Assembly (NCBI GenBank): GCA_050084515.1
Contig: CM114271.1
Location: 22,258,001 to 22,322,000, forward strand
Source: Blasia pusilla
Taxonomy: Eukaryota
Direction: 5' to 3'
Length of the DNA stretch: 64,000 nucleotides
Shown here: one piece after another, positions 25,271 through 63,219 of the stretch
Layout of the letters: each line of letters starts with the position of its first letter
How positions within the stretch are numbered: position 1 is the stretch's first letter
Translations under genes and position numbers: made by a program
The notes under the pieces: model-generated
Databases searched by the model: none
The model's input: the letters and a program-made list of their open reading frames with translations, nothing else
Told to the model about the DNA's origin: nothing

Positions 25271-26512
25271 AAAATGCCATTTCTACTTCCTTGTTGCCTT
25301 CACACATCCCTTCTTGTTATACACTTATGATGCAAATAGAAGAGCATAACATCGGCACCTTCAAAGGAGTTGGATGCTCCTACACTTGAGGCTAGTGGGA
25401 CTCGAATAAGTGTAGGTGCAAAGGTATGTTATTATGTAGAAAAAATAAGGATTTATAGTTGAGACTTGGAAGCTTTTGTGCCATGGTTTGTTTAGTTACT
25501 TATTGCTCAATTCACATATAGTTTCCTGATCTAAAATTTTGGTAGGGGGTGGAATTTGACGTAACTTACCAAAGGGCATTGGAGTCCTAAGAAAGGCGAT
25601 GGATAGCACAATTCCAAGCAATGCGGACATCTATCGAGGAGAAGGTGGAAAAAATAAGAGATAGCAAACTACTAATTTGACTACACAATTAACCGACCTC
25701 ACAAAGAGGGTTGCTGATTTGGCAACGATGGTCACTCAAAATAATTCAAGTTAGATTGATATGTTAACGCACCACACCATTTAGAGATACCAACTTGTAA
25801 GATTTTTTCTTGTGAAACTTGAATGTCTTAATATGCCATGGTTGGAGATTGTTTAGATATGTGCAATCTTGAGCATTTTTATTGTTGTAGACCCAACTAT
25901 CATGTAATTTCAACTCACAAGTTTTCCAATATCAATTTTAATTTTATGTTGTTATCTCATATGTATACTATTTTCAGGGGTTCTTGATCCTTCAAAATCA
26001 AGACTTTCAAAACAAGTTACTGAGCCCATCAAGATTCACAAGGGTCAAGAGTATATGCACTTTGAAATTGGCAAGTATATGGGCAGATTTTACACCTAAT
26101 GCCTTATGCAAATGTTTATTACAAATTAGTGAGGTTAAGTCCTGTTTCTTTTCATAGCTTATACAAAAGACTCACATGTATTTCTCATGAAGGGTTGCAT
26201 AAGAGAAACAAGATCCCGACAATACTCATCTCCCACGAAGATGGTGTCGATGCATCGACAACTAAGGGTGAGTGAATTAAATAGGCATCATATTAGTCAC
26301 TCCAATTTTTTTGTTATTGGATTATTTCATGCCTTACAGACTAATACTTTGTACATCTTTTTTTTTCTATAATTTTTTCTCAGGTTTATAGTTGTCTCAT
26401 GTATGAGGGAAAGGATTGGGACCAGAACAAGGTGCTCAACCAAGAAATCCACCATCTGAAGTTGGCATCCAATCAATACTTTCTTCTCCAATGAAGAAAT
26501 TTTTGAAGACAA

Positions 26513-27270
26513 TATCGTGCGCATGCACATCGCTACACAACCCACATCGTTGGTGACATCTACACACCACACAACACTTATATTCCCCAACACATAGGTA
26601 GATCCACACCTAAACAAAATACACTCACGCATATACATTGGGACCCTACAACTGAAATCAAGAGTACTAAAAACGGCTTACCCGGCCTAAAACTCCACTC
26701 ATGAGTCTACATCGGCATATCAAACCACATCCACCCTTTGTTATGAGGGAATCCGAATGCTAGCACCCTAACTCCTATATATCCACACACGTCTATGCAA
26801 GAGAGGCACTCATTAGGCTCAATATGAGAAAGATGGCTTGAGAAATCCATCTCTTTCACTCTTATACCCTTGGGAAGAGCCAAAAAGCTCTTCCCCCAAG
26901 CCCTCCCAACGGTAACTTGCGTGCACAGGTTATTGGATGACCATTGACTTGTCCAATGGGTCATTTGACGGACTAAAGTAGGGAGATTTCCATAAACGAC
27001 GTTCCCGACGCAACAAACCTATCGCCAACCTCATCTGACATCTAGGGACAAAGTTACACCCAAACAACCCGCTGACTCACTATATCATCGACGCGATAGA
27101 ACTTTACCTACGTCAAAATAAGATGTGATAGCTATCGTGCGCAAACACATCGCTACACAACCCACATCGCTGGTCACATCTACACACCACACAACATAGA
27201 TCTTCCCCAACATACGGGTAGATCCACACGTAAACAAAATACACTCACGCATATAGACTGAGACCCCACA
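26513..27270 (-). repeat. 3' terminal B-A-B repeat block of the minus-strand DNMT-gypsy copy
   Basis: B1 27270-27133, 2-nt spacer, A 27130-26655, B2 26650-26513. Purine tract (TAAGGGGGCGG on minus) lies just before B1. Confidence 0.85.
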
Positions 27271-27299
27271 ACCGCCCCCTTAGCTGGCAGTCGGGTCCC

Positions 27300-28470
27300 C
27301 CTAACTCCATATAGCACACACATATGTACTCGACGAGATCTCCTATCCTATATAAGTCTAGCACCATTGGTGTCGTCATCCCCGCAACATTGCCACACTG
27401 CAACAACCCGCCATGTTGATCCCTCCAAGAGATCTGACATTCTTGTACCCTGCTCCAAACATAGACGCAGCTCCACGCATGCCTCACGAGCTCGTATGCA
27501 CTCCACGCATCTCAATGCTCATCCCCAACAATGATAAAATCAAACTCCCCACCATGGGAAGAGACATCCATCTTGGCATGTCTCTCAGTGGGACTATCCG
27601 CTACGGGAATGTCCTCCCCAACCACTATTTAATCAACTGACACCACATGTGAATGCTGCCAGCGTGGTCACCATATTCTCACGCGGTCGACCATCACTAA
27701 CTCTTGCAAACTGCACCGATAGATGGCTCATATGTTCATCACCTAATCGCCATCCTGGCCGTTAAGAAACTATCTCCTCCCAAAAATCCAGAATAAAACC
27801 AAGGGGATACAACAATGTATTCCCTACTAACATAGCATACAACTCTGTCGGCGTCGTAATCGCTTGCGTCTGCACCATTGCACTATCTGACTCATGCTCT
27901 TGCCAAAGTCTTACCACCAACTCTTGTCGAGTCATATATAGCGTGGGTGATACGCCCCCAATAGAGATTTGTATCTGAAAGGCATAATGCTCAATGTTGC
28001 ATTTTCGTGAACCCAACGCCAAACACACCGCCTTCCCTAACATCAAGGACTGCGCTCTCGGATCAAGTAGGATGCGTTGGAGGTGGTACACCGTACCTAT
28101 GGGACTAACCAAGAAAAAAACTCATGCTCAGTTATCCAACAACACCACACTTGGTGTGATCATGGCTCGCTCTATCGCTCACCGAGCTGGCATATCTACC
28201 AACTTTGCCGCCGCCGCATGCCATGACTCAATGGAGGACGTCTTGAGCTCTTGCTCTGAGGGCAAGTCTACCACCTCCTCAACTATGTCCGAACGAGAGG
28301 TAGTCACCTCTTCACGCTCACACAACATGGCGGCCACTCGGAACACCTCCGCTGGTCCAACTTCCAACGTCGCCAACTCCATAGTGGAAAACAACGGAGC
28401 GTGGCTCACTCTAGTGGCCACCTCCAACAATGTGGTCAACACTGGCTCCACCGGAGCCGGCATAGGAGTT
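27300..28470 (-). pseudogene. Gag-PR linker, aspartic protease and start of the DNMT domain of the deleted gypsy copy
   Basis: LVSPIGTVYHLQRILLDPRAQSLMLGKAVCLALG is homologous to 43385-43684 (degenerate LLDSGA protease motif). 28179-28463 is homologous to 43158-43451. Confidence 0.8.
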
Positions 28471-29298
28471 TTCTAGGGGCTGGTATTATGGATGGAGAGA
28501 GGAAGAGAGAGAGGAAGAGAGGAAGAGAGGAAGAGAGGAGAGTCTCTCTTCAAAAAGAAGGGCAAAATCCGTCTCCTCTCTTCAATTTTTTTTGACATTT
28601 TTGAAATTTTTGTTTGCTTTCAAATTCATGGAATCTTTAGAAGAGAGTAGCAAGTGGATCACATTCGGGCCTAAAGTAACCTTCTTTTTTGAGGCTTCCA
28701 AGAACAAGTAGACATCATAAGACCGCTACAAATATCCTTCCATCACTCTCCATGTGAGCCCAATTTTCTTCACATTGCCTGTCTAAGCCAGCTCTACAGT
28801 AAGCCGAGCTGAGGGGTATTAATGTCGGAGGACCATCGACAGATAATTTGACCCGAAGTAGCAATTTCACCTCAAGGAAAGGTTCAAATAAAGACTCTAA
28901 CTATGGTCTCAATAGACTCATGTGCCCTTCAAGGTTTAGCTTCTCTGAGGATGTGGGTGACATTATGGATTGTTGACTCTTCTTGCATTAAATATCCCAT
29001 CCGATCAATACTCATCCATGAGGGGGTTTCACAACAGAACAAATCACTAATTACTGATGGTAGCCAAAGACTTTCATGATAGCATTGGATGATGTTGGCT
29101 CATGAATGGGTGCATAAAGTATACCATGGAGTGTTATGCGTTTGACAACTTGGTTTCACCATTCTCTCAACCATTGAGAAATGTATGCATCAAGAAGAAA
29201 ATGTGATGAGACTGAGAGGACAATTGAACTAAAAGGTTGATAGCTATCATGAGTAAAGAGGAACGGATGCACCCATGTCCCTTCATTCAGACCCTTAA

Positions 29299-29710
29299 TG
29301 TCGGAATCCGACAGGTTGTACCCCTTCCAACCCGTCGGAATGCGACAATTTGCAACTCGTCGGAATCCGATTGGTTGCACCCCTTGCAAGCAAGCACACA
29401 ACAACAAAATAAGGATCTTGAGAAGTGATTCCATTCCATCCTGCAACCCATGAGAATCTGACATGAAAATCCGATAAGTAGTAGGAATCCAACACATCTC
29501 TGAAATACCGTGTTAGAGAAGAATGGTGTGATGATCATGGGGGGAACGAGGCAAAAGTGAAGAAGCCTACCAAACTGCCTGAAAAGTTGGACTAACAAGA
29601 AAAGAGTGGGATCACTCAAGCAGCCAACTTGTCGGAATTCGACAAGTTGCTTGCAAGGGGTTTAAAATATTGTGACAAGTTGCAACCCGTCGGAATCCGA
29701 CGGGTTGCAA
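29299..29710. repeat. Palindrome cluster 1 (subterminal)
   Basis: Perfect 15+1+15 copy TTGCAACCCGTCGGA-A-TCCGACGGGTTGCAA at 29680-29710, plus degenerate copies. Confidence 0.9.
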
Positions 29711-30769
29711 AACAAACAACCTCGAGAAGATAGACCAACACAATCGACAAGAACAACAAAAATTCAGCAGAAGTTTACAAAAACTATCATGATTCAAAGA
29801 CCTTGTGTCCTTTATTACATCTGAGGGAAGCTCGAAAATGTGCATTTGATCTTGTCTATGATTTCTTTAGCCTCGTCATCTACAAATTTACTCCTAACTC
29901 TCATAGGTTCCCGTACAAAAGGAATGTCTTGGGATACAAGTGGCTCCTCTGGCCGATTATAGACAAGGATCCAAAATGTTGGGGAATTCGAGATCCTTGC
30001 CCCTCCCCCTAGGTACACCATAACGGTCCCATGTAACATGATTTGAGTCCCAACACCTTCCTCAACGGTAAATCTTGTATGCTCTGCAAGGTGACATCCA
30101 TCCAATATCAATATGTGCTCCGTCCTTGGAAAGCACTAAATCCCTTCTCCAAAACGCTTGAGTAAAGTTGGGTCCAATAAATCTTTGAACTCACTCGTCA
30201 TCGTCCGATAGCTCTTCCAGAATTACTCTCGGCTTTGCCCTCCCGATTTTCGTAATAGTAGGAAGTGATGACGGTGTCACTATCAATGGTGGTTCTAGAA
30301 CTGGAGCTGTTGGCTTTGGAGGAGAGTTGTATACTCCCACTAGCCTATTTGCAAAGGTCAAAAAGTTTGGCCTTCCCTCAAGGCAGAGAATGTTCCTGCC
30401 ACTATGCCATGCACCTCTCATACTCGCCCCTGATAAGCCCACTAAGTCAAAGACCAAGTCACCCGGCCTCGAACAGAGCTCAATGAGCGTTTGCATCAAG
30501 GCAGGTGACTTTTCCCTTCCTCCAAGTAAGGGGGTCCCGTCTTGCATGTAAATTCCCGCGGGGGGTGGGGGATTGTAGAGACTATCTAAGCTGTACCCAT
30601 CGGAGCATGGATCCACTGGATCCGGGATCAGGAACACTTGGAAGTTGTGCTCGGGCCTTACAAAACAGTACAAAAATGAGTGGTCCATCTGTAAACAATC
30701 AGGTTAAAAATAATGTCACCAAAAAGAAAAAGCTAGTAGACCGCTGGTCTACTCTCCATAAATTGACAC

Positions 30770-31275
30770 AATGTGCAAACCATCGAGATCTGACGGGTTG
30801 CTTTTCAACCTGTCATACTAGGTCCATACTAATTACCAACTCGTCCAAACTTGGCCTATAGGCCTGACAGAATAGCGTCTTGTTGAAGTCCGACGGGTTG
30901 TCTTACAACTCTAAGACCCCTTTTTGGCCATGAGCAACCCGTCGGAAGCCGACAGGTTGCTCATCTTGCTGGACAGAACCTCCACTGTTTCGAGTGCGAT
31001 GGTTGGCTTACAACTGAATACAATTGTTAAGAGTTGAGAAGTTCCTAATATAAGAGCAACTCTTCACTTTCAAACGGGTTGCATCAATCCAGAAACACGG
31101 GGAAAAGCAGTGCTACTTGCAACCCGTTGGGTTTTGACGGATTGCAATAAATTGAGACTTGTTGGTGAATTTGCAACCCGTTGCTTTCACACGGACTGCA
31201 ACATCGCAGACACAAGATGTTGGGATCCGACATGTTGCATGCACAGATGCAACCCGTCGGAGCCCGACGGGTTGA
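30770..31275. repeat. Palindrome cluster 2 (last intron of the ParB-MTase gene)
   Basis: e.g. gcaacccgtcggaagccgacaggttgc at ~30934 and tgcaacccgtcggagcccgacgggttg at ~31248. Confidence 0.88.
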
Positions 31276-31944
31276 GAACTAAATTTGTTTAATAAGAGGA
31301 CTTACCCGGACTTGACTCGTCCCCGATCGGAGTGGATACTCGTTTTTAATTACCCATGATTGCGTCGTCCTCCACTTCAGTGACCTCTTCACGCACTGAA
31401 GGTTGAAGAGCTCGTCTTTGCTCCCTCCAGTGAGAACCAAGAAACAACCCCTGTCACTCAAATACGCATCAATAAAAGAAAATAATAGCGCGATCTGGTC
31501 GTACGAAAGCTGGATAGTGTCAGACGGATTGTTGTCCCACAAGCAAAACCTAGAAGGAAAATTCGAAACGAGGAAGTCCACCGCCACCTCCTCAACCACC
31601 CCATGCACCGTCCATGGGGCGTGCCCATTTCGAAGGAGTTTTTGTCCCACCACGTTCAATTTGTCGATGGCAAGTGTCGATTCCTGAGAACTGAAACACT
31701 GCAGCTCATCGACAAGATGAGTCAATTGAACAAGGAAATTTTTCCTGGTGGTTGTTTCCCTATGCCTGCCCAAGGATGATGGAGTGTATTCCACATCCTT
31801 ATCTCCTCCCTCGGACGAACCAAACGTCTCCCACTTCTGCTTTTCTCGAGTCTGCTCTCGGCTTGTGGGAGTCTCTGTTACCTCAAACTCCACATGAGTT
31901 TTCTTGGATGAGGACCTGGTCCGGTCCTCTAGCCCAACTCGCCT

Positions 31945-32090
31945 GGAAAATTCCGCCTCTCACCTGGACGATTCCGCCTCTTGCGTGGACCATTCCGCCT
32001 CTCACCTGGACGATTCCGCCTCTCGCCTGGACGATTCCACCACTCGCCTTGAGGACTCAGCCTTTTTTCAGGAAGACTCCGCCTGAGAAT
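31945..32090 (-). repeat. In-frame 21-bp coding tandem repeat (AESSRxE)n
   Basis: ttccgcctctcacctggacga repeated ~5-6 times. Confidence 0.85.
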
Positions 32091-33460
32091 TCCTCGATCC
32101 CCTTGCCTTCCTCAAACCCGTTGTGGATTTGTCTTTGGCGGTGACAACCTTGCCCACCAACTATGTTGTCTTACGGGCTTGCTCTTCCACATCTCCTTCG
32201 AAAAAATTGTTAGGTTGCACAAAGTTTGGAATGTCGTCCCTACCTACGACCAATGCATCATACACCACGCGTAGATTTTTTTGTGTAATGTCCTCTGGGT
32301 CGTTGAAGTCCAACTAGATTGGACAATTGTTAACATCCCAGTCGGACATGCCTTGTCCCATCTCCATGTCGTACATGGAGAATGCCTCTACATCAGGCAA
32401 AGAAGCCCACAATTTGCAGGCTGCCGGTAATTTTCCTAGGTACCTCCATTCTTACAATTGATGAGGTACCTGTACACCATCCGCTGGGAAAATCTTTGTC
32501 GAGATGACTCGGCCGCCTTGTCTTGAAGATCCCGCTTCTTCTTTGCAAAATCCCCTTTTTGGGCGTCTATTTCCTCATCCAACTCTGCCTGAGGGAGCAT
32601 GTGATTCTTGAACATCATCCTACATCATGGGTTTTTCGTGGGCTAATCTATGATGTCCTCAAGCCATAGTTCAAAATCTTCTACAGCCTCTTGGTTTGCT
32701 TCCTTTGGAACAAGCTCAATCTTCTTCAGCTCCGCTTGAAGACCCACAATCATGGACTTCCCCAGAAGGCGTAACGCGTACCAGAATGACCATTCCCGAA
32801 GCCAATGGGAGATCGCAGGATCTGAAACTCCCGGAGGATTGTGTGTGGCCCTCTTTTGGGCCTCAGTGCCCTCGAGACTGATTTTCATAAGTCAGATTTG
32901 CCTAAACTCGGATATCCCAAAGAGCGCAAATCTGTGCACGCGGTCCAAAGACACTTTCTTGCCGATCCGACCATGTGGATCTTCGTCTCTCTTCCGCTAG
33001 CGCTTGATTATCGCCTTGAGCTCCTTGTGAAACTCCGAGCCAAGTTCGGATTTGAGAATCCCAATGTAGTGCTGCATCTTGCTTGCAGTGTACTTTGTAG
33101 CTGCAGATACGCCGGATTGAATAAACTTTGCACGTTCCGACGCTGATACGTTCTCCCTTCGCTCCAGTTCCAACGAAGCACTCTTCTTGGCTGCGTGGAT
33201 CTTGGACCAACATAGGATTGTGACGGCTGCATCTTGGGAAATGAAGGTATTTGCCCAAGTCTTCTTTTTTACTTGACCTCCCTTTGCCAACATCTCATTT
33301 TCCAGACCATCGCCCAGGAATCCCTTGCACTCTGCCGGATGCGTCAGAAGCACCTTCTTCATCCTATCGCAATCCTAGATCGACTGGTGGGTGATATTTC
33401 CCTCGGATAAAATCTTGAACATCCAAACACAAGGTAAGAATACTGGAAGCTATTGGGTTC

Positions 33461-34275
33461 CTGCAACCGGTCGGACTCCGACGGGTCGCAATTTTGTCAA
33501 CCCATAGGGGTCGAAATGGTAGCACAGAGATAAATGTTGCAACCCGTCGGAGTCCAACGAGTCACAACACATATCTTTGTGTTACACTTATTACAACACT
33601 CTTGAATTTTTTAGAGAGAATTGCAACCCAGTCGGACTCTGAAGTCGGACTCTGACGGGTTTTGGAATGACTTCAATTCGGAGACAAGCTCTCGGAAAAA
33701 AACTGCACATATCAAACCTTATGAGTCCGACGAGTTGTGGAATGACTTCAATTCGGAGATAAGCTCTCGGAAAAAAACTGCACATATCAAACCTTCGGAG
33801 TCCGACGGGTTGTGCGATGCCTTGTAAAGCTGAAATTGGATGCCTAAAAGCAAGCTCTTGTACTCTAACTACCTACCCTTGGGATGTGTGGGGGGATGCA
33901 ACTCGTCGTAGTCGGACGAGTTGCTTTCGGCCAAAAGTATCCGAAAAATACCGGACAGTCCAGCAACTTGTCGGACTCCGAGGAGTTGCTTTTAGGCATC
34001 CGATGATTTGTTAGCTCTCGTTGTGCAACTCGTCGGAGTCCGACGGATTGCAGAACAAATAAATCATGCAGTCATTTTTCCACCCGTCGATGTTTGACTG
34101 GTTTCAGTATCCCGGATTAATCTGGTGTGCTTGGCCATCAGGCAACCCGTTGGACTTCGACCGTTTGCTTGACTACGACATTGACCACAAACAGGATGGT
34201 GGCAAGAGACTCAAATCATTCCTTCCCATCTTTAAGCTTTCCAATTATTCAACCTGTCTGACTCCGACAGGTTGA
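33461..34275. repeat. Palindrome cluster 3 (intron 2 of the ParB-MTase gene), including a ~75-bp tandem duplication at ~33660-33810
   Basis: About a dozen degenerate gcaac(c/t)cgtcgga(g/c)tccgacgggttgc copies. Confidence 0.88.
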
Positions 34276-35889
34276 AGCAATCAAACTTAAAGAAGAGGAA
34301 ACTTACATATTCATTGCATGCATTGCCATTTCCAACATTGCCATGTGATGAGGAAATGGATGGAGCACAACTGCCTTCACGCAAAAATCCGCCTCCAATG
34401 AATTTGGGCGCTCCTCTGCAAACTGCGTCCACACCATGTACCTGTGGTTTCCATCCGAGATGAAGAAGTAAGGGTTCCCCATCCTGCTAAATTTGGTTCC
34501 TTCAATCGCTCTTCTGAACTCTTGATCTCTCATCCTCCAGAAAGTATCCAGCGCCTCCAAGTCCTCTTCCGTCACCACCGCTTGGGTTCCATAATTGTCG
34601 TAAGGTTGAACATAGAATGGAGGGAAGCTGTCGACGTAGGATGTCACTGCCGACTGTTTGAGCTTTGCAATGTCCTCCTCCGACTAAATTTTGCGGACGT
34701 ACCCCATTGTCCGTAATTGATAGAGTGGAATTCTCGGGGCGTTCTGGCCCTCCATCAGTGCCATATGCTTAACAATCTGCCACAATGGGGACCAAGTCAA
34801 TAAAATAATTAGCCTTCACATAACTCAAATTTTTCTTACCTGCTCAAAGATTGGGTCGATGTCGAGGCCTGCCAACTGCTCTGGGATAGCAGCAGGCAAG
34901 TCCACGGTGAAACTCATCGATACGATAAAGGTCGATTTCTTTGGCACGGTTCAAAGACGATGAAGACTCTTCTCCTACTTCTTCAAATATGTCCACCATC
35001 TCCACACTTGCTGTCCTCATGACCTCATTGTCTGTCACTTGAACTTCGGCCGTTTCCTCAACCGATTTTAGATTCATGGTGTCCTTAGACCTCATCAGAG
35101 ACATTTTTTGCATCTCAACACTCTCTGTTGGACGAGCATAGCTTTCTTCAATGGCAATTGCTTTTTCCTTTTGAGCTTTCGCGAATTTTGCTCGCCTCAC
35201 AGAGGCATCAAGACGCTTCTTCTGGTGTTTCTCATCCGCGACTCTTTTCTTCAAGGCCTTTGATGCCTCATCCTCGGCGTTTTGCTTAGCGAGCTCCTCT
35301 AGAACACTTTTTGCTAGAACCTCCTGCGTGTACACATCTGCTTCCCTTTTCCACTCCTCTATTTCTTGTTGCCTTATCTCATTTTCCAAACAAGGACCTA
35401 GAAATGGTGACGTTGGAGTCCTTATGGACTTGGGAGTGATGCTCCTACCTTGGTTGCTTGTGTTTTCTTTCTCGTCATGATGCATGTTGGGTCAGTTCTT
35501 CCTCTTTGACAGTCTAATCTGCTCTTGTGCACGATAGATCCCTCGGAGCATTTCCTGATGAAGCACCGTGACCCTAAACCTGACTCTCTTAGCCTTTCAT
35601 GATGAAGTGCCGTGACCCTCTACCATATGGGCTTGCCAAAATCAAACCCTCGTAGCGTCGGGTGTTGGATCTTTGTAACCTTCTAGCAAAGTGGTGATGT
35701 AGCCGAGTTTGGCAGCGGATAGGAAACGTCAACTGTTGCGAGGAAGAGCACATGAAATCGCGAAATGAAAAACGGGAATGATCAAAACCTCGGCCTTTTA
35801 TACTTTTCCAACCATTGAGCTGACCGTTGGGTGGTTGGGTCATATCGACAGCGACGTGTCGGCCGTTATGGAACTTTGCACGTGGGAAC

Positions 35890-36720
35890 CCGGGCAACCC
35901 GTCGATCTCCGACGGGTTGCACGCTTCCCTCGTCTTGGGGATGCGGGGTGAGTTACCAAGTCAACCTGTCCGAGGCCGACGGGTTGCACGCGTTCCTCGT
36001 CCTCGGGTAACAAGGCAACCCGTCGGAGACCGACGGGTTGCCTGGGTACCTCGCCTTGTTACCCGAGGGCCAAGTTGCACGCTTCCCCCGTCTTGGGGTA
36101 ATAAGGCAAGGTACCCGCGCAACCCGTCGGAAACCAACGGGTTGCACGCTTCCCTCGTCTTGGGATTACAAGGGGAGGTACCCGCGCAACTCGTCGGAGA
36201 CCAATAGGTTGCACACTTCCCTCATCTTGGGAAAACAAGATGAGGTATCCGGGCAACTCTTCGGAGACCAACAGGTTGCAAGCTTTCCTTGTCCTTGGGT
36301 AAGAATGCGACAAAGCATGGTCCCGAGGCAAGCCGTTGACCTCCAACGGGTTACAAGGTCTACCATGGGTTGGACACTTCCCACCATACGGCAAAACTGC
36401 ACTCACGGTTTGCACGATTCATTGGACAAAAGAAATTGACGCGAGATCCAAAAGGGAAAGTGAGGTTAGGTGCCTTACGAATCCGTCGCAGTCCCCAACG
36501 GGTTGCTGTAGCAAATCCATGCGATGTCTCGTATCTCGATGTTAGCAAATCCCGACTCCAATCATATAGGTCAGCCAAGCAAGGGGTACCAACCCAACGG
36601 ACTCCGACGGGTTGCAAGTTACACTCATACTCTTACAGAAGCAGGTACTCCGTGGCTTTGCAACCCACGTGTCTAAGTCCCAAATTTTGCAACCTGTCGG
36701 ACTTTGACAGGTTGCAACAG
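35890..36720. repeat. Palindrome cluster 4 (between the divergent genes), partly in 67-bp tandem units
   Basis: Palindrome starts at 35894 and 35961, then 36119, 36186 and 36253 (67-bp period), most followed by a cacgcttccctcgtcttggg-like sequence. Confidence 0.9.
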
Positions 36721-36995
36721 GATTGAATCCATTGCGTCAGACAATCTCACCTACCAAACAACATATTTTCAGTCGAATTTTATCATGAGAATAACCGTCA
36801 CTGTTCACTATAAATTAAACATTCCCATTCTCATTCTTATTCTTATTCTCATTCTCCACCCAGTGGAATCATCTAGGAATGGATAATTATGTGAAACTCA
36901 CTTGTGGGAGTCATCTAGCGGCCCTTCCTCAATCATAAATAGTTTGATCGCAAGCTCGTGAATCTTTCATACCACTTGATGAAAATTTCCTCTCA

Positions 36996-39900
36996 GTGCG
37001 ATTTCTTCTCCAAATTGGAATAATCTTTGTTTCCAAGGACGTTAAGGTGGACGTTAGGGTGGACGGTATGGAGGACGTTGTAGGTGAGACAGTCCAGCCA
37101 ATGATAGCAGACCGTAAAGTACGGAATCTCCTACCTCTAAAAAATGGTCAATACGGAGTTTATGGCTTGCCTCTAAATTCCTATGTTTCCCAAGTAGACA
37201 GTCCAGAATTTCCTAGTGCACCGAGCTCCACGTTTGCCACTCCAAGCTCAGTAGATCCGGCTTCGACTCCAACTTCAAACGTTCGTAACAATGTTGTACT
37301 TCTTGAAGACATTCCGGATGTCGTCAATCTCAGTGGAACTGTCGGACACCAACCGGGTCTTTTGTTTGCCTACTCGTTCCTCTTGGGAGTATCAGGCAAC
37401 AGTTCGCTGTCATCTCTGCCCTTTAAAATATTCAAGCACATTCTTATCGACGAGATGCCGCCCACGTACGATGGTAATTGCATTTTTGAGTTGCCCCCAC
37501 TTGCTCGTCTTGCTTAAAAGAAAGATGGAGGACGCTTGAAGGATATGGACAGAAAGTCTTATTGTCATCAATGGTGCAGCTTCAATGGACTATTGCTTCA
37601 ATTCGAGATGGTCCTTGGATCGTTTTTCGCCGCCAATGCGTGGAGCCCTAGAGTGTAGAAGTCCTGCATGCCCGTATCTAGAGCGCAATGGGCGAGTCAA
37701 TACGTCACAATTTCCCCCTAAGAACGCAGAAACTCCATATGAGGTCGGTGTGACCATATCGCCGGGAGGCCATCGATATCCTCATTATCAGGCATCCCCT
37801 TTCTACGTTGGAGCGTGTCCTGCATACATATTTTTCATTGTGCACAACTTCAATTCTACGTCCGAGTATACAAGGCTGGAAGTTCATGTTGGCTCCCACA
37901 TTCATCTTGTTACCGGTGTAATTCAGAGACATATCAAGGAGGATGTGGCAAAGAAAGTGGCCGAGGTATATAGAAACTCTCCGGGATCAAAGCTCAGAGT
38001 GATAAAGTTAACAACATCATCACAAATTTGTGAAAAATTGCTTAGAGTCCCTGAGCAGTGCGAGATCATGGCTGCTGAGGAGAAACAACTATGGGAAAAT
38101 CTCGCATTTCTCGCTGATCCAGAATGCTTCTGGAATTTGCTGCCTCAAATACGGGCACTGGATGGAAAGACGGCCGGAGTGGAAGCCATTTCTAGAATCA
38201 AGGTGAACTCAAGATTTCCATTTATTCAAAGATGGCAGTTCATGGGCCAAGGAGGCGAAGGATTCAGGGCTTATGTCTTCAAAATGTCAACGATATGGTA
38301 GTCGAGTGGCCTAGATCTTAAAGATCGAATGAGGGAAGGGGAAGATCTTTACGGCAGGTGAGTAAGCTTTGATATTTGCTACAGAGTGCTGAATGGATGG
38401 TTGACCATGGGTGCTCACGTTTATGACCATGTGCAGAAGGGACTCAAAACTACATTCGTCTGTGAGGTAAAAGCAAAAGACGTTGGCAGTTTGAAGATGT
38501 GTTGGTTACTCTTATTGGAGGTGGTGAAGGAAAACAAAAGGCCACCTCCGGAAATTTATGGATTCATGGCGGAAAATGCACAATCTGGGTGGATTGCTAT
38601 CAGGGAAGTGTTATGGAGTGGACAGGTTCAACCAGAGAGGGAAAGGTCGGATGCTTTCCATTGGCAACAGTCTGCGACCCGGTACACCAAATCTTGCATC
38701 AAGGAGAATAAGAGGACAAAGCATGTCACTCTACTCCAACGTTGTAAGGACAACAAAACCTTGAAACATGCCATGGAGTGCTAAGAAGAACTACATGGGT
38801 GGTGGAGGAAGCATGCAATTGAGGGGAAGAACAAAGAGTTGTGCTCTTGGCTCAGTTGGTGGATTGTACGAATGAGATAATGGGAAAACTTCATGCGTGA
38901 GGTGAGTTCAGTATTTCGTCCTGTCGAGCTCATGTTGACAATTTTTTGAAAAGTTGCAACTCAAGTTGAGAAGTGTGGGCACTATAGGGATTTCAAACCG
39001 AAGAAAAAGCAACCCGTCGAATGCGAAGGGTTGCGTGAGTGTGCAACCTATCGGAAACCGACGGGTTTCCTAAGTGTGCAACCAGTCAAAAACCAAAGGA
39101 GTGCATCAAGAATGTTTGTGTTACCCGTTGGAGCGCGACATGATGCACGAGGAATGTTTGTGCAACCTGTCGGAACCCCATTGGTTGCATGAGTGTGCAA
39201 CATGTCGAATCCCGACGGGTTGCAAGTTGCATGTATACAAGGCTTGCAGATAATTTGACCTGGATGGGTTGCAAGCTGCAAGCCTGCGAGTTAACTTGGT
39301 TAGCAACCCCTCAGATTCCGACAACTTGCATCTGTCTGCAACGTGTCAGATTCCGACTAGTTGCGTCTGTATGCGATTCCTTGCATTAAGACAGGTTGCG
39401 GCTGTCTCCAAGTCGCATCCAAACACGTTGCATCAGTTCAAGTTAACTGGAACCCGTCGAATTCCAATAGTTGCAAAGCTTCGTGTGTGGACATTTCTTG
39501 CAAACCAACGGAATCCGACAGGTTGCACAAGGATTTTTGACACAACCCATCCGATTTCGACGAATTGTAGAAGCAGGTTCCTGGGTGCTGGGTTGTAGTA
39601 AAAGGTTACAGGGACATTCCAGGGATGTCTCCGACTTGCAACCCGTTTCTAGTCGGAGGCTGGAAAATCCATGTGCGACTCGTCGGATTCTGATGACTTG
39701 CACTTGGATCTTCCAGCTCGAAGTGGCCAAAGTTACTTGCAACCCGTCCAAATCCGACGGGTTACAGTAGGTGGTTCCTAGATGTTGCAACACGTCGGAA
39801 ACCGATGGGTCGCAGAGTCATTCATGGGATGCATCTCACTTGCAACCCGTCTGGTTCCGACAGGAAGTTTTTTTCTTTGCTCATAGAGCTATTTTCGTTC

Positions 39901-40899: not shown

Positions 40900-41460
40900 A
40901 CATCCGCACATGTCCCCTCCTATGGGTCAATCTCAACCCCAACGCTCGATGGCTCGATTACTCTCGCAACACCCCGAGTCACCATCGCAACAGCCTCAAC
41001 TTGAGCCGCTCTACACATAAATCCCATCCTTGTAGAATCCTCATTAGCACATGGTAAGATGTGGAGGCTGGCGCGACACTAGCTACTCTTAGCTTCGTGC
41101 ATGCGTGCAATGGCGTCATCGTCATGGCAACAATCCTCTCCTCCAACTAATCTATGCGCGTAAGGAGCGCTGCATCATGTGCATGTCCTCCATCTACTAT
41201 GACGGGTGATAGCACTCTACCACTACAATCACCCACCAACTCTCTCACCCCCAAGTCATGTGCCTACATCAGGACGTACCTCATGGCAAAGATCATAATA
41301 CGTATCCCTAGTGTGACCATATCGGTGATAATGATCACATTGCCACTATAGTGGGGCCATCCTCTGTGGCTCCTGAGCAATCACAGGTGCCCGTGGCCCT
41401 CTCCCATGATGTGGGCAGTTTCTCTACTTATGTGGCCCATCACACGTTGTCGTATAGTAA
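40900..41460 (-). pseudogene. Gag fragment (two degenerate zinc knuckles) of the minus-strand DNMT-gypsy copy
   Basis: TCDGPHK*RNC and CDHYHRYGHTRDTYY. The reverse complement of 40900-41170 aligns with 42750-43010. Confidence 0.75.
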
Positions 41461-41470
41461 AATCAGCCAG

Positions 41471-42659
41471 TGTGTAAACTCCTTCCTCGTTAAGTGTTAG
41501 ATAGAGTTTTATTAGTATTAAGTAAATTAGCTTAGGAAAAGGAAATTCCCATGTTTAAACCTCTTTATGGTGCCTCTTCTATGCCGGCCCAAATTTATGA
41601 AAAGAGGTAATAAATAAAGGATGACTTTATAAAAGTAAAGTACTGAGGTTGGTGCTTTAATGAAAAGCAAAAGTAGGCTTGGTTGGTGGTTAGGTTAGTT
41701 GAGGTAATTTGGAAAATATCAAGTGGGTAAAAGATGATATTTTGGAAGAGATAAGAGGAAATCTATTTGTGTCAAAATGTGATTGGCTAAGCCTTGAGAG
41801 GAAGCCATGTGGCACAAGATAAGATTAGTTCTATTTCGTACCCTTTTGGGTCTCTTGTGAGTATATAAAAAGGAGGGACCTTCAAGGGTTCATCACCTTT
41901 TATTCCACATCTTGAGTCTCTCGTGTCACTCTTGAGTGTATGGCTTTGGAATTGCTTGCTCTTCCAATGAGAGTGGATCACTTCTCTTGGGAAAGTAACT
42001 TGATCATGCTCTATTTTTTGAAAGATTTCTAGAATGTGGTGTGTGTGGAAATGAGAGGTTTGTCACCTTAGAGGAGTTTAGTCATACTAAAATAGTGAAT
42101 GTTTTGGTTTGTTACTTCCCAATGAGAGTGGATTATCCCTCTTGGGATAATAACTCCGCCAAAACCCATTTTTGAGGAGAGTAGATAATGTTTGTCAAAC
42201 ATGGATAGGGGTGGAGTACGAGTTGTGCCCAAATTTCCTTTCCTTAATCCATATCATGTCAAGATACTTTTTGTAGATAGAAACTGGTTCACTCGTTATT
42301 TAGTTTATCACTTTCGGGAAGCGTTCATGAACGAGGTCATTCAATCTCCAACTCCGGTTATCCTTCCTATCGTCAGATATGGAAGGACATGGGATTATAC
42401 TTTGTATGTCCTTATATAGCGATCCATGGACATCAATATGCTTGCTCAAGTAGGGTTTAACACTAGTTGTGTTATCTTCCTCATGTACAAGGGTAAAATA
42501 GTTTATAAAGATTTTATAGTTAGGAATTTCGGAGTCCGATGTTACGAAAAAGTGATCGCCTCGGCACTTCCATTTGTGATACCTGTCGTGAGAAAATGGA
42601 GAGTATACATAATAATTTTATATTGAAAAAAAATATCTTCTTAGAGAGTTCATTTTGCA
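41471..42659 (+). mobile_element. LTR-like segment of an unrelated element
   Basis: Abrupt AT-rich non-coding block, TG start and CA end, TATA-like gtatataaaa at ~41861. No TSD or partner LTR seen. Confidence 0.35.
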
Positions 42660-44263
42660 TCGACCACGTATGCTGCAATTAGAAGGCATGGTGGTAGAGG
42701 ACCACCACCAACTAGAGAAGATGGAGCATGAGCACCAGAGCCGACACTTCTCTCATACATCGATCAATTGGAGTAGAGGATTGCTGCCATGACGATGATG
42801 CAGCTCAGGAAAGGCACGGAGCCGCGAGCAACTATTGTGGCTCCAACTTCTGCCTCTTACCCTGACCCGGGTGAGGATCTCGCTAGTATGGGGTTTATGT
42901 GTAGCGCAACTCTAGTTGAGGCAGCTGCAGTGGTGACTCATGGTGCTATGAGAGGCATCGAGCCATAGAGAGGTGGAGTTGAGATTGACCCATCGGAGGG
43001 GACCGATGGGCGGCAAGCTAGGGTTCTACAGTCATTCACATTGTCGGAGGCACTACACACACCATCGATGGTGCATTGACGACTAGTGGTGCCTACAACT
43101 CAGGCAAGTACGTCGACGTCACGAGGAGTTGGAGTGACAAATCCTATGTCGGCTTGAGTGGAGTCAATGTCGACCATAGTGTTGGAGGTGGCCACCAGAG
43201 TGAGTCAAACTCCGCTATTTTCCGCCATAGAGTTGGCAACGTTGGGAGTTGGACCAGCTGAGGTGTTCCGGTTGGCCGCCATGTTGTATGAGCATGGAGA
43301 GGTGACTGCTTCTTATTCAGAGGTAGTTGAGGAGATGGTGAACTTGCCCTCGGAACCGGTGCTCATGACGTCCCCCATAGAGTCATGGCATGCGGCGGAG
43401 CAGAAGTTGGTAGATATGCCAACTCGACGGGCCATAGAGGAGCAGTGGTGATACCTAGAGTAGTGTTACTGGATAATCGAGCTAGAGTATTTTGCTTGGT
43501 TAGTCCGACGGGGATAGTATACCACCCGCAGTGCGTCCTACTTGATTTGGAAGCGCAGGCCTTGATGTTAGGGAAGGCGGCGTGTTTAGCGTTGGGGTTA
43601 CGGAAGGCCGACATTGAGACTTGTCCCTTCCAGATAGAGACCTCGATTGGGGGCGTATCACCCACGCAGTATATGACTCGATAGGAGATAGTTGTTAGAG
43701 TCCAGCCAGAGCATGCGACGGATAGTGCTATGGTGCGCACATGTGCGATTACGACACAAGCTAAGTCGTACAATGTGTAGGTGGGGAGTATAGCGTTAAA
43801 TCCCCTAGGATTCATCCTTGACTTTTGGGAGGAGACCGTTGCTTATCGGCCAGGGTGGCGGTCAGGTGACGGGCAGATGAGTCAATTACCTTTGCAGTTT
43901 GCGGGACGAGGTGGTCGATCACGAGACGAGTCTGTGACCACGTTGGCAGCTTTCACAAGTAGTGTTAGCTGGCCATGAGAGTTGTTGGAGGGGAACGCAC
44001 ATGCGGAGGATGTCCCAATAGCGGATAGTCCCACTGAGAGACAGGCCATGGAGGGTGTCTCTTCCCATGTTGGCGAGACCTCTTCACCATTGTGGGGTAC
44101 AACTTGAGAGCTAGAGAGGAGTGCCGACAACCTCGTGACTCATGCGTGGAGTCATGCCTTTATCTCGGAGGAGCGAGAGTCAGGTGGCGATCGGGCTCCT
44201 GGAGTGGAGACATTGACCCCATTGGATACCACACGCGTTGTGTGGCAGTGTCCAGAGGAGGGT

Positions 44264-45190: not shown

Positions 45191-45599
45191 TCTCACGTCC
45201 ACGAGTTGGACCATTGCCTACACGGTCTATACAGGCATTGGCTAGGGGCGGGACAAGGAGAGATAGGCACCCATGGACTTCCTGGGACGTCGCTCGAGCA
45301 GAGAGTGCGAAGGCAGCCAGAGTAGCACATGTTCATTTTTTGGATGTGGAGCATGGTGTAGGAGGTCAGAGTGGAGTGGCTGTTGCGAAGGTGGCTAGGG
45401 TTGCTACATAGCAACCAAAGCCAGAGATTGCGTCCTCTCCGAGTGAGGTCACAATGGAGACTTAGGAGCCTGTGATAGGTCTCAAGTTGATAGGAGGAGA
45501 GCGACGGCGAGTTCATAGGTTTTTGAGAGGGCATGTCAGTTGTTTTGCCTTCAATATGAGATACTTGGGTAGCTAAAGGGTCTCGGGATACGGATTGAG

Positions 45600-48496
45600 T
45601 TGGCTAGTGATACGCCGATCTTTCGTCGACCCTACATGTGTTCTGATATGGAGCGAGCCTTGATTCAGAGCAAGAGTCAGGACTTGTGGAGTTATCCCAT
45701 GGGGAGTATGCATCTGCCACAATCATGTTGGCGAAGAAGGACATGTATGGCAATTGGACGGATAAGCGGATGTGTGGAGATTACCGTCCTATCAACCGAC
45801 ATACGAGGTCAAATCGGTACACCATGTCTACTCTTGAGGAGATCTTTGATGTGGTAGAGCATGCAAAGATCTTCGATACTTTAGATCTCTTTGCCAGCTA
45901 TCATCAACTTCCTATCAGGTTGGAGGACAGGGAGAAGACGGTATTATGGGGGATAGATTGGTTTGGGAGATATTGCTTGTATGAGTGACGGTTCTTATCA
46001 TTTGGGTTGAAGAACGCGCATGCAGAGTGTCAACGAGTGATGGATAGGATTCTGGCTGGCTTGGAATTTGTATGATGTAACATAGATGATATTCTTATCT
46101 TTAGTTCCACGGTTGAGGAGCATGAGCGACACCTGGAGGAGGTATTTCGGCATTGCAGTTACATGGACTGAAGTTACATCCAGGCAAGTGAAGATTCTTT
46201 CAGGAGCAGATTGAGTACTTGGGACACACCATAAATCTGAGTGGGTTAAGCATTCAGTAGACAAAGGTGGAGGCTATTGCGTAGATTCCACGCCCTACAG
46301 ATGTGAGTCAAGTCCGATCATTTCTTGGACTGGTAAACTTCTATCGACGGTATGTCAAGGGTTTTAGTGCGATCGCAAAGTCTTTCACCTTGTTGACGAG
46401 ACTTTATCAGGTTTGGTTGTGGGGAGATGATCAGGAGCGAGCATTCAAGGAGCTCAAGGACACATTGACGTCCTCATCCATTTTACAGAGACTGGTTAGG
46501 GGTCGCCCATTCCGGTTACATACGGGTTGGAGCATGTTGGTTCTAAGAGCATTGCTTACTCAGAGGGATAATGAGGAGAGGGAGTTTGTTATGGCTGACG
46601 CGAGCTGATAGAACAACATTTCAGAGGAAAATTATAACTCTTACGAGGGAGAGTGCTTGGCTGCAATGTGGGCCGTGGCACATTTCAGGTGCTATTTATT
46701 CGGCAACCCTTTCACACTTATCACTGATCATCAGCCGTTGAGGTGGTTGATGGAGTTCGACAAGCTTACGGGAAAGCTTTCCCGATGGGCTCTATTACTA
46801 CAGGAGTATGAGTTTGAGATGGTTCACAGGCCAGGTCGGCTGAACCATGATGCGGATGGTTTGAGTCGTAACCCATGTCCGAGTCAGAGAGACGACATAG
46901 GAGCTCGATGGCACGGAGAGAGTAATGAGGAGATGGTGCCCGGTTGGCATGCATCTACCTATCTTTGTTGGTTGACTATGGTAGTTCAATCATAGGTGAT
47001 GACTCTAGTAGTGGGATTGGATGATGAGTCTTTGGATCCGGAGGTCAGTGAGGAGGCGACAAGTGGTCGTGATATCCATGACGACGTGGAGGTTGTGGAG
47101 TTCTTGCGCAGTGACATCATAGCGAGCACAATGAGTGTTAGGGAGCGGGATCGGATCCTACAGAGAGCCAGGAGGTTCATGTGGGAGGGGACTCACATTT
47201 TGCAAGTATGGGGAGATGGTAGGATGCGAGTGGTACCTCATCCTTCCTAGCGAGCAGGTGTAATGTGACATGCCCATGAGGAGTTGGGACATTTTGGAGT
47301 GAAGCGTACTTACAACTTACTCTAGATTCAGTATTGGTGGCGTGACATGCATATTGGGGTACAGCAAAGTATGTGACAAAGTACGAGCATCCTTCAATGC
47401 TCCCACTCCGTAGTTACATCCTTTGCCGATTATGGGTTTATGTTATCGGTGGATTTTAGACTTTGCGGTACCTTTGCCATTGACGGGACGTCATCACAAG
47501 TACTTGTTGGTCATGGTGGAGCATTTATCCAAGTGGATAGAGTTGGTGGCACTACCGGACAAGGTGAGCAAGGAAACAACTTATGCATTTCTAGATCGTG
47601 TGCTTAGTCACTTTGGTGCACCAGCGGAGGTGTTGACTGACCAAGGTCCCGAGTTAAGGGGAGAGTTTTAGACCTTGTGTGATCAGGCGTTGATAGATCA
47701 CCGCACCACGTCCATAGATCATCTTGAGGCGGATGGGTTGGTGGAGAGAGTAGTACATACGGTGAAGAGAGGATTGCGCAAGTATGGCTTCCAACGGGGA
47801 CAGTTCAGGGAGTGGGACCTACACTTGTCATTGTTGGCTATGGGTTGTCGCTTTAGTCGGTACGCATCCTTGGCATCATTTTCACTGTAATTTTTGCTCT
47901 TTGGGAGAGAGCCAGATTTACCTTCAGCTATTCGACGTAACGTGGCGGAGGTGTTAAATCTTGATGATCCAGATGTGTGGGTACAAGCGTGTTCTTAAAG
48001 GGCAAAGATTTTTTGTAGAGTTATGCCTATGGCCTTTGGGAACTTAGCTATTGCTCAGCATAAAGATACATTGAGGTACGCGACCATTCGTGGAGGAGGT
48101 TATCGCCCAAGGATTAAGAGGTTTCATCCTGGAGATTACGTGTATTTACAGCAAGCGGCACCCACGACGCTACATGTCACTGTAGGGCGCACAATCCTAC
48201 ATGTGCGCGAGATATTATCGACTAGAGTTATCATGTTGGAGAGACGGGATGGTATGGTCTAGAAGGATCATGTGCGCAATTGTGCGCCATGCCATCTTCT
48301 GAACGTAGACGGGACAGTGGATCCGAGCTTGGCAGTGGTACTTGCAGGCTTGAGGTGTATGTTGTGCGGATCTGCGAGGGGTGCAGCCACCATGTTGGTA
48401 TGTGATGGTTGTTCTCGAGGGTGGCATATGTCATGTCTAACCTCCCCTCTTGATGTAGTTTCCATGGGACGATGGATGTGTCCGAGATATGCATAG
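45600..48496 (+). pseudogene. Gypsy RT - RNase H - integrase - PHD finger (degenerate)
   Basis: PIFRRPY, KRMCGDYRPIN, (Y>N)IDD, VRSFLGLVNFYRRYV, LITDHQPL, LTDQGPE, ADGLVERVV; PHD CMLC...CDGC...WH..C...WMCP. Confidence 0.92.
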
Positions 48497-48575
48497 GGTC
48501 ATAGGTCATGTTAGAGAGATGTGATATTTTCTATCTGGAGTTGGGGGAAATCCAACTGCCAGCTAGGGGGCCGGT

Positions 48576-49331
48576 TGTGTGATCTCCATGTACGTGTATG
48601 AATTTATTTCTGTACATGTGTGGATCTACTTGTGTTTGGGGAAGACTGGTGTTGTGTGGTGTAAATCTGACCAGGGATATATATTTTGTAGCGATATGTA
48701 TGTGCACGACAGTTGTCACATCTCAGTAGCCGATAGGCCGAGATCTATCGTGGATAGGGCGTAGGAGCTAGCGGACTATCTTGAGTGTAACTTTGTCCCA
48801 TAGTGTTGGACGAGGTTGATGATAGGTCCATTGTGTTAGGAACGTCATTTCTGATAACTTTCCTGTTGAGGTCTTTCACAACCGAGTGACTTGTTGACCA
48901 GGTCATCCGCACTTGGTAACCTGTGCGCGTAGGTTACCAAGGATTTGGCTATTTTTAGGGGAAGAGCCTTTTGGCTCTTCCCAACCCTATATAAGAGAGG
49001 AAGATGGCTTTCCTAAGCACTCTTTCTCGTGTTGGGTCGTTGGAGCACCTCTCTTGTATGTGTGTGACATAGGACTATGGTGCTGGCATCCGGATTCCTT
49101 AATAGCACAGGGTGGACGAGGCTCGATATGCCAATGGAGATTGAGGAGTGGAGTTTTAGGCCCGGTGTGTCATTTTTTACTACTCTTTATTTTATTGTGT
49201 GATCTCCATGTACATGTATGAGTTGATTTTTGTACATGTGTGGATCTACCCGTGTGTGGGAAAGATCGATGTTATGTTGTGTAGATGTGACCAACGATGT
49301 ATGTTGTGTAGCGATATATATGCGCACGACA
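48576..49331 (+). repeat. 3' terminal B-A-B repeat block of the + strand DNMT-gypsy copy
   Basis: B1 48576-48711 and B2 49196-49331 (136 bp each, TG...CA) flank A 48714-~49190. Purine tract AGGGGG at ~48565-48570. Confidence 0.88.
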
Positions 49332-49502
49332 TCTGCACCAAAGAAATCTGAGAAAAATGGATAGCGCTTCCGTGCACGACCTCTCAAACTAAAAAAACGA
49401 AAAATACAAACGCCAACCAGTGTCTCCAAGGGCTCCCGACTGAGGCAACTCACTTGCCTACCTGCAAATAACGAATTCTCTGCCCCCTCGCATCTTTCTC
49501 AT

Positions 49503-56968: not shown

Positions 56969-57106
56969 AATTCCTTGATGAGCGTGAACTTGGGGTCGTT
57001 GAAGATCTGGATGTTTGGGGAGAACTCAAGGTAGCCGGAAGACCGCGACGCCGAGGAGGAACGCAAGAGGCGAGGAGGAGATCTGAGAAAAGGCGACGAC
57101 TCGCAA

Positions 57107-63213: not shown

Positions 63214-63219
63214 ATGCAG

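Follow-up and report, generated by a model that had tools for sequence, protein, structure and literature searches.

A probable pseudogene from a dispersed, multi-copy gene family with a degenerate beta-class methylase-like domain in Blasia pusilla

Results

Gene fragments at the locus

We analysed a 64,000-nucleotide (nt) stretch of the Blasia pusilla genome (GenBank assembly GCA_050084515.1, contig CM114271.1, positions 22,258,001 to 22,322,000 of the forward strand; hereafter the window, whose first letter is position 1), which is eukaryotic, plant-like DNA. At 30191-35485 on its minus strand, an initial annotation had placed a transposon-borne, four-exon gene for a fusion of a ParB/Srx-like module with a methyltransferase-like domain of the beta class, the class that comprises N6-adenine (N6A) and N4-cytosine (N4C) enzymes. 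Judged from its reading frames and from its distant relatives, the locus appears instead to be a decayed, pseudogenised copy, in which a methylase-like domain can still be followed across two exons. The peptide strings quoted in support of the fusion gene are all present on the minus strand, namely VDFLVSNFPS (31581-31552), YLSDRGCFLVL (31464-31432), WVIKN (31355-31341), HSFLYCFVR (30682-30656) and the stretch from EKSPALMQ to ILCLE (30514-30377).

The methylase-like part consists of two minus-strand pieces. Its N-terminal half (31306-31959) comprises 218 open codons, in which VDFLVSNFPS is followed by LLFSFIDAYLSDRGCFLVL and then by WVIKNEYPL, and it ends at a donor GT at 31305; directly upstream of this open exon lies a tandem repeat with a 21-nt unit (31917-32084), made of six overlapping 63-nt copies at 21-nt spacing. 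The last intron (30689-31305), bordered by GT and AG in phase 0, holds several copies of a 27-nt palindrome that recurs throughout the locus. The C-terminal half (30191-30688) has 165 codons and a TGA stop, and includes the motif X/I/II region (30514-30377), which reads REKSP, then DLVFDLVGLSGAS, then GRNILCLE. Joining the two halves across the junction 31306|30688 (phase 0/0) restores a single continuous alignment to a model of the family described below.

Further upstream, the proposed gene falls apart. Although GT and AG dinucleotides stand at the borders of all three annotated introns (34839-34777, 34306-33461 and 31305-30689), only the last junction holds and the upstream joins fail. The proposed exons measure 646, 470, 2155 and 498 nt, which sum to 3769 nt, a length not divisible by 3, and their join, translated from the ATG at 35485, runs into 40 stops; the spliced protein of about 1,200 amino acids (aa) read from these exons is not supported, the join not being an open frame. 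Exon 1 (34840-35485, minus strand) is a Lys/Glu-rich open reading frame (ORF) of about 213 codons starting at that ATG, without a family match, which closes with a TGA at 34846-34844, 5 nt ahead of the proposed donor, and whose phase is incompatible with the ParB-like frame of exon 2. Exon 2 (34307-34776, minus strand), the ParB/Srx-like ORF, has 156 codons and carries an in-frame TAG at 34686-34684, within its conserved-looking N-terminal part. The third exon (33460-31306) contains 28, 15 and 18 stops in its three frames, the final 218 codons alone being open; its middle stretch (31960-33460, minus strand) is broken by many stops into ORF fragments, each 50-130 codons long, that alternate between two frames, and shows no family match and no similarity to the N-terminal parts of moss relatives.

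The acceptor side of the proposed second intron has an origin of its own. Its AG, at 33461, is the terminal palindrome of an insert of about 590 nt (33461-34053) that resembles a miniature inverted-repeat transposable element (MITE) and lies inside the proposed intron, bounded by an inverted palindrome of 27-30 nt, GCAACCCGTCGG..CCGACGGGTTGC. This insert folds strongly (z = -6.5), and it coincides with a peak of DNA read depth and with rearranged copies in the reads. The suspicion that the gene had decayed in this copy is borne out by the stops and frame breaks, and an intact gene at the locus is ruled out by the TAG in exon 2 together with the non-open join.

A methylase-like domain in the last two exons

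The reading of the two C-terminal exons as a beta-class amino-methyltransferase-like domain, with motif IV preceding motif I, proved sound. The order is permuted as in that class, the motif IV position (31581-31552) lying upstream of the motif X/I/II region (30514-30377), and the alignments of the relatives are colinear with it. The last exon matches positions 165-219 of the 221 of PF01555 (20.1 bits, E 6.8e-4), residues 226-280 of M.RsrI (E 7.5e-4) and five PHROG DNA-methyltransferase families (best E 2.4e-5). An exhaustive phmmer search of 1.84 billion representative sequences returned nine proteins at E<=1e-3 (best 9.6e-6), three of them ordinary bacterial methylases and six eukaryotic-looking proteins with the same odd motifs as the window copy.

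These relatives include a protein of 758 aa from the moss Ceratodon purpureus, labelled 'hypothetical protein', a further protein of 596 aa and Ceratodon paralogues of 788-810 aa on other chromosomes. Four Ceratodon paralogues lie on at least four contigs of unequal length and carry differing chromosome-style locus tags, the two that were aligned being 89-92% identical to the query, and a search with region 400-700 of the Ceratodon protein found three Ceratodon proteins only. The intact relatives (596-810 aa) are annotated merely as hypothetical and have long N-terminal regions without a family match. Word-index homologue searches in the 'longer' range, with the last exon and the ParB-like ORF as queries, returned nothing, and two scans of metagenome contigs gave pattern matches and zero confirmed relatives.

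A family profile of 11 rows, built from the eukaryotic relatives and both window exons, matched solved beta-class structures over profile positions 113-290, which span their entire catalytic domain, with the strongest similarity to the DpnA type (5hfj/5hek, E 1.8e-8) and to CcrM (6pbd, 7.4e-8), and weaker matches to the N4C enzyme 8s9m (E 0.008) and to RsrI (0.02); in this comparison the family sequence iDlliadlPeglp aligned onto VDAIITDPPYNIS. Similarly, a Foldseek search with an AlphaFold model, which is of the 596-aa relative and not of the window protein, placed beta-class N6A/N4C methylases in all of the top ranks, with TM-scores of 0.47-0.72 normalised on the target. Among them were CcrM (E 1.5e-10) and the bdelloid N4CMT (5.4e-9, rank 19), as well as M.BceJIV, M1.HpyAVI, TTHA0409, MboIIA, RsrI and PvuII. 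The enzymes of the DpnA/M1.HpyAVI and CcrM type had E values of 1.5e-10 to 1.4e-9.

The N-half exon alone has zero Pfam or Protein Data Bank (PDB) matches. Against a family model built without the window sequences, it ranked second among 1659 six-frame ORFs (E 0.19), and hhalign placed 126 of its columns at the expected colinear position (E 0.0078, probability 5%). When the two exons were joined by script, they gave one domain alignment of 52.1 bits, compared with 44.3 bits for the C half alone, and none of 200 controls with a shuffled N half scored above 44.0. Chance ORFs are ruled out by the rank of the N half among the 1659 ORFs and by the joined-versus-shuffled scores. On these comparisons, the last two exons form one real beta-class N6A/N4C methyltransferase-like domain.

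Degenerate but conserved motifs

Both motifs that had been described as diverged are degenerate. In the window, motif IV reads N-F-P-S instead of (D/N/S)-P-P-(Y/F/W), and the relatives have D-A-P-E or D-L-P-E at this place. Motif I reads D-L-V-G-L-S-G-A-S in the window and D-x-x-x-x-[S/T]-G-A-[S/A] in the relatives, at the position where 5hfj has Dpfmgsg; of the canonical F-x-G-x-G, the second glycine and the upstream Asp alone are retained. We call the domain methylase-like rather than a methylase because the catalytic motif, the motif of the S-adenosylmethionine (SAM) loop and the Pfam cut-off all failed.

Between the 596-aa protein and the Ceratodon proteins, which are 28% identical, the loop A-D-x-P-E-x-L-P-V-P is invariant, as are R-E-K-D-P and T-G-A of the SAM half (invariant positions D328, P330, E331, L333, P334, V335, P336, T522, G523 and A524). 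Because the loop is invariant at such low overall identity, the family state is a conserved replacement of DPPY that lacks the aromatic residue, and not random decay. Amino-methylases stack the flipped base against the aromatic residue of motif IV. Since this residue is missing, we infer that the family protein may be non-catalytic or re-tooled, with a pseudo-enzyme being slightly the more probable state of the domain, and an unusual active enzyme being doubtful.

Tens of diverged copies and a transcript from another one

Reads from three RNA runs (6-12% of each) and from a single DNA run (about 1%) were mapped onto 29800-38900 at a likeness of at least 90%. The DNA run yielded 15,555 reads over 9.1 kb, of which 13,934 were 90-95% alike, 1,556 were 95-99% alike and only 65 were at least 99% alike to the window. 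With both orientations summed, DNA depth over the coding pieces was about 23-145, compared with roughly 1 for the class of at least 99%, and the genome therefore holds tens of diverged copies, an absolute number being uncalibrated. By part, depth was about 115 over the ParB-like exon and about 49-145 over the methylase exons, within an overall range of 18-266 across the locus. Just beyond the stop codon, at 30182, 251 DNA reads depart from the window sequence, most genomic copies diverging to the left of this point; the 3' flank on the minus strand (29800-30190) is co-transcribed with the last exon.

The RNA runs gave 259, 289 and 294 reads, nearly all of them on 29800-30711. As the first mates fall on the plus strand, this RNA probably derives from the minus strand. 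In the same mapping, RNA depth was about zero over the motif IV exon, the middle stretch, the ParB-like ORF and exon 1, which is a weak negative. The RNA differs from the window in all or nearly all reads at 29868, 29966, 30105, 30509 and 30671, with the RNA letter at 30509 occurring in 4 of 99 DNA reads; it also has a 4-nt deletion at 30499 in 43 of 58 reads, compared with 0 of 108 DNA reads, and a 1-nt insertion at 30367 in 54 of 80 reads. Because these differing letters and indels are shared, the RNA stems from a different, near-identical copy with a motif X/I stretch that would be out of frame, and the transcript gives no evidence for a methylase-like protein.

In the three runs, 14, 13 and 22 RNA reads, respectively, stop fitting the window at 30690, and their continuation agrees at 30 of 30 nt with window positions 11924-11953 on the minus strand. 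The end of this RNA-joined exon (11922-11953, minus strand) reads ...ACAATGAG and is followed by the donor GTACGT; the exon lies on the lower-coordinate side of a low-complexity block (12-14 kb) that is rich in GC (56%). The RNA thus confirms that the acceptor of the last annotated intron (30690/30689) works, but it is paired with the exon at 11.9 kb and not with the annotated donor at 31306. The junction 11922|30688 is not colinear in the window, its donor lying downstream of its acceptor, and the window contains no second copy of 29500-35700. Candidate explanations are an exonised near-identical copy past the left end of the window, a back-splice, or a structural difference between individuals.

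Palindromes, nested repeats and neighbouring genes

The 27-nt palindrome GCAACCCGTCGGAnTCCGACGGGTTGC occurs 11 times at three or fewer mismatches, with 0 expected, and all of its occurrences lie within 10.4 kb (29352-39765). It fills both of the long proposed introns and bounds MITE-like inserts such as 33461-34053. The palindrome is also very abundant in the DNA reads of the genome, and gives rise to recurrent NPSESDGL and RRSPTGC peptides in the ORF tracks. A tandem array with a unit of about 67 nt that carries the palindrome lies at 35885-36306. A search for terminal inverted repeats (TIRs) across about 28.4-43.2 kb found palindrome pairs and the element at 40904-43013 only. This 2.1-kb element, whose TIRs of about 250 nt are 75-80% complementary, is probably a non-autonomous DNA transposon.

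The locus sits within a GC-richer block (about 26-50 kb) built of nested repeats. Sequences resembling long terminal repeats (LTRs) at 26512-27314 and 27471-28473 have inverted counterparts at 48531-49332 and 43136-44151, respectively, with 72-75% identity, and there is a direct partial copy of 26655-27128 at 49506-49990 with 85% identity. The LTR-like arms, about 2 kb long and inverted, flank a 14.7-kb core; either two old copies of a retroelement face one another here, or the arms are terminal inverted repeats of great length.

On the plus strand next to the locus, ORFs of 189, 253 and 140 codons (36948-38784) lie in higher-copy repeat DNA. They have no Pfam match, and Atlas feature searches gave weak leads (at most 0.86) to DNA-binding domains of the FAR1/WRKY-GCM type; these ORFs may be the remnant of a Mutator-like transposase. 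Because DNA depth around them is far higher, reaching about 1,100 at 38312-38900, they may belong to a different element than the methylase-like gene.

Elsewhere in the window, all on the plus strand, we found a Gpi1 gene, encoding a component of the GPI-GlcNAc transferase, in two exon blocks (3759-5369; PF05024, E 1.6e-37 and 1.5e-24), a decayed reverse transcriptase (RT)/RNase H region (45573-46995), a largely open gag-pol of the Ty3/gypsy type (57035-61497) and a Helitron-like fragment of the 2B domain of a Pif1 helicase (63151-63606). A scan of the whole window with Rfam gave zero families.

The ParB/Srx-like frame and the question of a fusion

The assignment of the second proposed exon to ParB/Srx is weakly supported. 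Read with an X at the stop, the ORF contains IPLYQL, EEDIAKLKQS and PPFYVQP, then an insert of about 44 residues and then YFFISDGNHRYMVW, within which DGNHR lies at 34455-34441 on the minus strand, a short motif that is weak alone. ParB/Srx domains have a loop of the DGxxR or GxxR type after a hydrophobic strand, and the sequence pattern of the ORF would appear to resemble this arrangement. DUF1015 (PF06245), which we take to belong to the ParB/Srx clan, matched with 18.1 bits (E 1.4e-3; 17.5 bits in the read-through form), below its cut-off of 25.8, and the top cluster of the Atlas feature search was a 'ParB N-terminal domain-containing protein' (0.93), a lead drawn from just 130 shared features. 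Against the assignment, ParBc (PF02195) was unlisted at E<=10, phmmer against the PDB gave three rows at chance level (E 0.79-1.9), tblastn against phages gave zero matches, PHROGs at E<=1 gave three families with no ParB among them (best 0.071, a terminase family), NCBIfam and PADLOC gave zero ParB families, and a single-sequence AlphaFold model of the ORF is unusable (mean predicted local distance difference test (pLDDT) score 39.4). We regard a ParB/Srx fold in this ORF as evenly balanced between presence and absence.

The proposed fusion itself is not supported, as the two parts are not in one polypeptide here and the nearest full-length relatives show no ParB. The ParB-like ORF lies 2.3 kb upstream of the methylase-like exons on the same strand, with at least 15 stops between them in any frame. 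Pfam, BLASTP and phmmer detected no ParB in the 596-810 aa relatives, nor did Pfam in a 436-aa mycobacteriophage methylase considered as a candidate for comparison. A true ancestral ParB-methylase fusion is a possibility to which we give rather less than even weight.

A stronger form of the fusion would hold that intact paralogues still encode a spliced ParB/Srx and methylase-like protein of about 1,200 aa, phage-derived and transposon-carried, of which the window has a damaged copy. In prokaryotic fusions, ParB precedes the methylase, and the ParB-like ORF and the methylase-like exons share this order and a strand; besides the DGNHR, DUF1015 and Atlas leads, the two frames are phase-compatible across the proposed second intron, which would happen in 1 of 3 cases by accident, and their DNA depths are similar. 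However, these points have to be set against the 2.3 kb of broken sequence between the parts, an intron acceptor that belongs to the MITE-like insert, relatives without detectable ParB, the empty family searches and unusable fold of the ParB-like ORF, and zero RNA over it, and we consider this account unlikely, while the most serious of the competing explanations.

Alternatively, unrelated decayed genes or fragments may stand side by side, with a methylase-like gene of about 600-800 aa starting in the 32-33 kb region and the ParB-like ORF belonging to another unit. The length of the nearest full-length relatives, which lack ParB, would fit such an arrangement, as would the uneven DNA depth (18 to 266) and the mosaic nature of a region composed of LTR-like repeats, RT/RNase H remnants, MITE-like inserts and palindromes. 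It sits poorly, however, with a middle stretch that is unlike the N-terminal parts of the moss proteins, and it would leave to coincidence that two domain types frequently fused in phages lie next to each other on one strand; we consider it improbable. A viral relic, left by integrated DNA of a giant-virus-like or virophage-like kind, is very improbable. Phages and large DNA viruses typically have ParB-like and beta-class methylase genes, the top Atlas clusters carry viral taxa and phage methylase families are among the PHROG matches, but the methylase domain is split by a spliceosomal intron whose acceptor is used in RNA, the sequence is present in tens of copies at 90-95% identity, and the ORFs scanned included no further hallmark gene of viruses.

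Discussion

Our preferred reading, which we hold to be probable, is that a dispersed, multi-copy gene, which encodes a degenerate methylase-like domain and was likely borne by a mobile element, is present here as a pseudogenised copy. In this account, the 3' part of the gene consists of two exons, separated by one genuine phase-0 intron, that encode a beta-class N6-adenine/N4-cytosine fold of prokaryotic or phage ancestry. The family protein, going by its motifs, would no longer stack on and methylate a flipped base, and might instead serve the element as an accessory module that binds DNA, SAM or both, comparable to the inactive domain of DIRS1 retrotransposons. In the window copy, the loop is altered further, to NFPS, and the upstream two thirds are broken; given the stops and frameshifts there and the state of the loop, nothing functional is therefore to be expected from this locus. 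The ParB/Srx-like ORF could be what is left of the N-terminal domain in an ancestral ParB-methylase of phage type, to which we give the same less-than-even weight as above, or a separate neighbour.

The gene is most likely carried by a mobile element, as suggested by its copy number, the nest of repeats around it and the Ceratodon paralogues on several chromosomes. The transposon carriage that had been proposed is upheld as far as a dispersed, multi-copy family goes, whereas the type of transposon and its ends were not found.

Several observations weigh against the preferred reading. We could link neither a transposase nor termini nor a target-site duplication to the gene, and its status as part of a mobile element is argued from copy number and context. 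The curated cut-off of PF01555 (26.7 bits) is reached neither by the last exon nor by six relatives (13.6-22 bits), and the homology of the N half, taken by itself, looks weak. The AlphaFold model of the 596-aa relative is of low overall quality, with a mean pLDDT of 42.7 and just 78 residues at 70-90, although values of about 70 are attained in the core. In addition, unrecognised extra introns could take out some of the stops in the middle stretch, and the conserved D-x-P-E loop could signal a changed rather than a lost activity.

A bolder extension of the preferred reading is that the copies form a mobile-element family of bryophyte type that arose from a phage ParB-methylase in an independent capture, with the ParB/Srx module and the D-x-P-E fold selected as a device for handling DNA and one near-identical fragment exonised into a host transcript. 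We consider this unlikely as a whole; if it were true, the device might bind or mark the DNA of the element, or interfere with silencing by the host.

Beta-class N6_N4 methylase domains are rare in eukaryotes, the Marchantia enzymes being the other known case beside the bdelloid one. The family described here is a third kind, a repetitive and intron-bearing family shared with mosses that is missed by standard Pfam thresholds, is filed as 'hypothetical protein' at NCBI, and has a catalytic loop that is changed yet conserved. Should its intact members prove functional, they would have a bearing on the reuse of prokaryotic DNA-modification folds by mobile elements, on whether pseudo-methylases have a part in the defence or counter-defence of plant genomes, and on the non-canonical DNA methylation reported in early land plants. 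The locus itself is in all likelihood a dead copy, and for it a ParB-methylase fusion is not established.

In the literature, we found no account of bryophyte repeats carrying a beta-class methylase gene that is degenerate or associated with ParB, although the Supporting Information of PMC4738411 might list such a family. A bryophyte repeat family with a D-x-P-E loop is likewise absent from the accounts given in the accessible parts of PMC8885841, 10.1101/2021.02.12.428880 and PMC4738411.

Among characterised enzymes, the family shares its fold, with the catalytic half placed before the SAM half, with DpnA/M1.HpyAVI and the CcrM type (5hfj, 5hek, 6pbd; PF01555). It differs from these enzymes in being eukaryotic, intron-containing and multi-copy, in its long non-homologous N-terminal regions, and in its motifs, the relatives having D-[A/L]-P-E and the window copy NFPS where those enzymes have DPPY, and x-[S/T]-G-A-S taking the place of FxGxG.

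The closest eukaryotic parallels are the bdelloid N4CMT (8s9m/n/o) and Marchantia MpDN4MT1, in which, as here, a prokaryote-derived domain of the N6_N4 type resides in a eukaryotic genome and has gained introns. According to PMC8885841 and 10.1101/2021.02.12.428880, both are host genes, single or duplicated, whose catalytic motif is intact and whose N4-methylcytosine activity has been demonstrated, and PMC8885841 describes the bdelloid enzyme as being without eukaryotic homologues. In contrast, the Blasia family is repetitive and has a degenerate catalytic loop, the comparison with MpDN4MT1 being by description only, and it scores better against the N6A-type DpnA/CcrM enzymes than against N4C enzymes.

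A parallel for the route of entry is found in Iyer et al. (2016, PMC4738411), who describe six acquisitions of group-1 methylases by eukaryotes, including clade 6 of haptophytes, derived from phage methylases of ParB-Tls loci. The likeness lies in a ParB-type module near a group-1 amino-methylase, in the passage into eukaryotes and in a lineage-specific expansion; however, the haptophyte clade 6 proteins bear an FHA domain (PMC4738411), whereas here ParB is weakly indicated and lies 2.3 kb off.

For a methyltransferase fold that may have outlived its catalysis, PMC4738411 provides two precedents, the inactive methylase-like domain of DIRS1 retrotransposons and the non-catalytic pseudo-methylases of the METTL14 type. 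These belong to other groups (the PCIF1-like group 2 and the MT-A70 clade, respectively) and are not homologous to the Blasia family at the family level. The analogy we adopt from them is that of a methyltransferase fold with substituted catalytic and substrate residues, kept within an element or as a partner.

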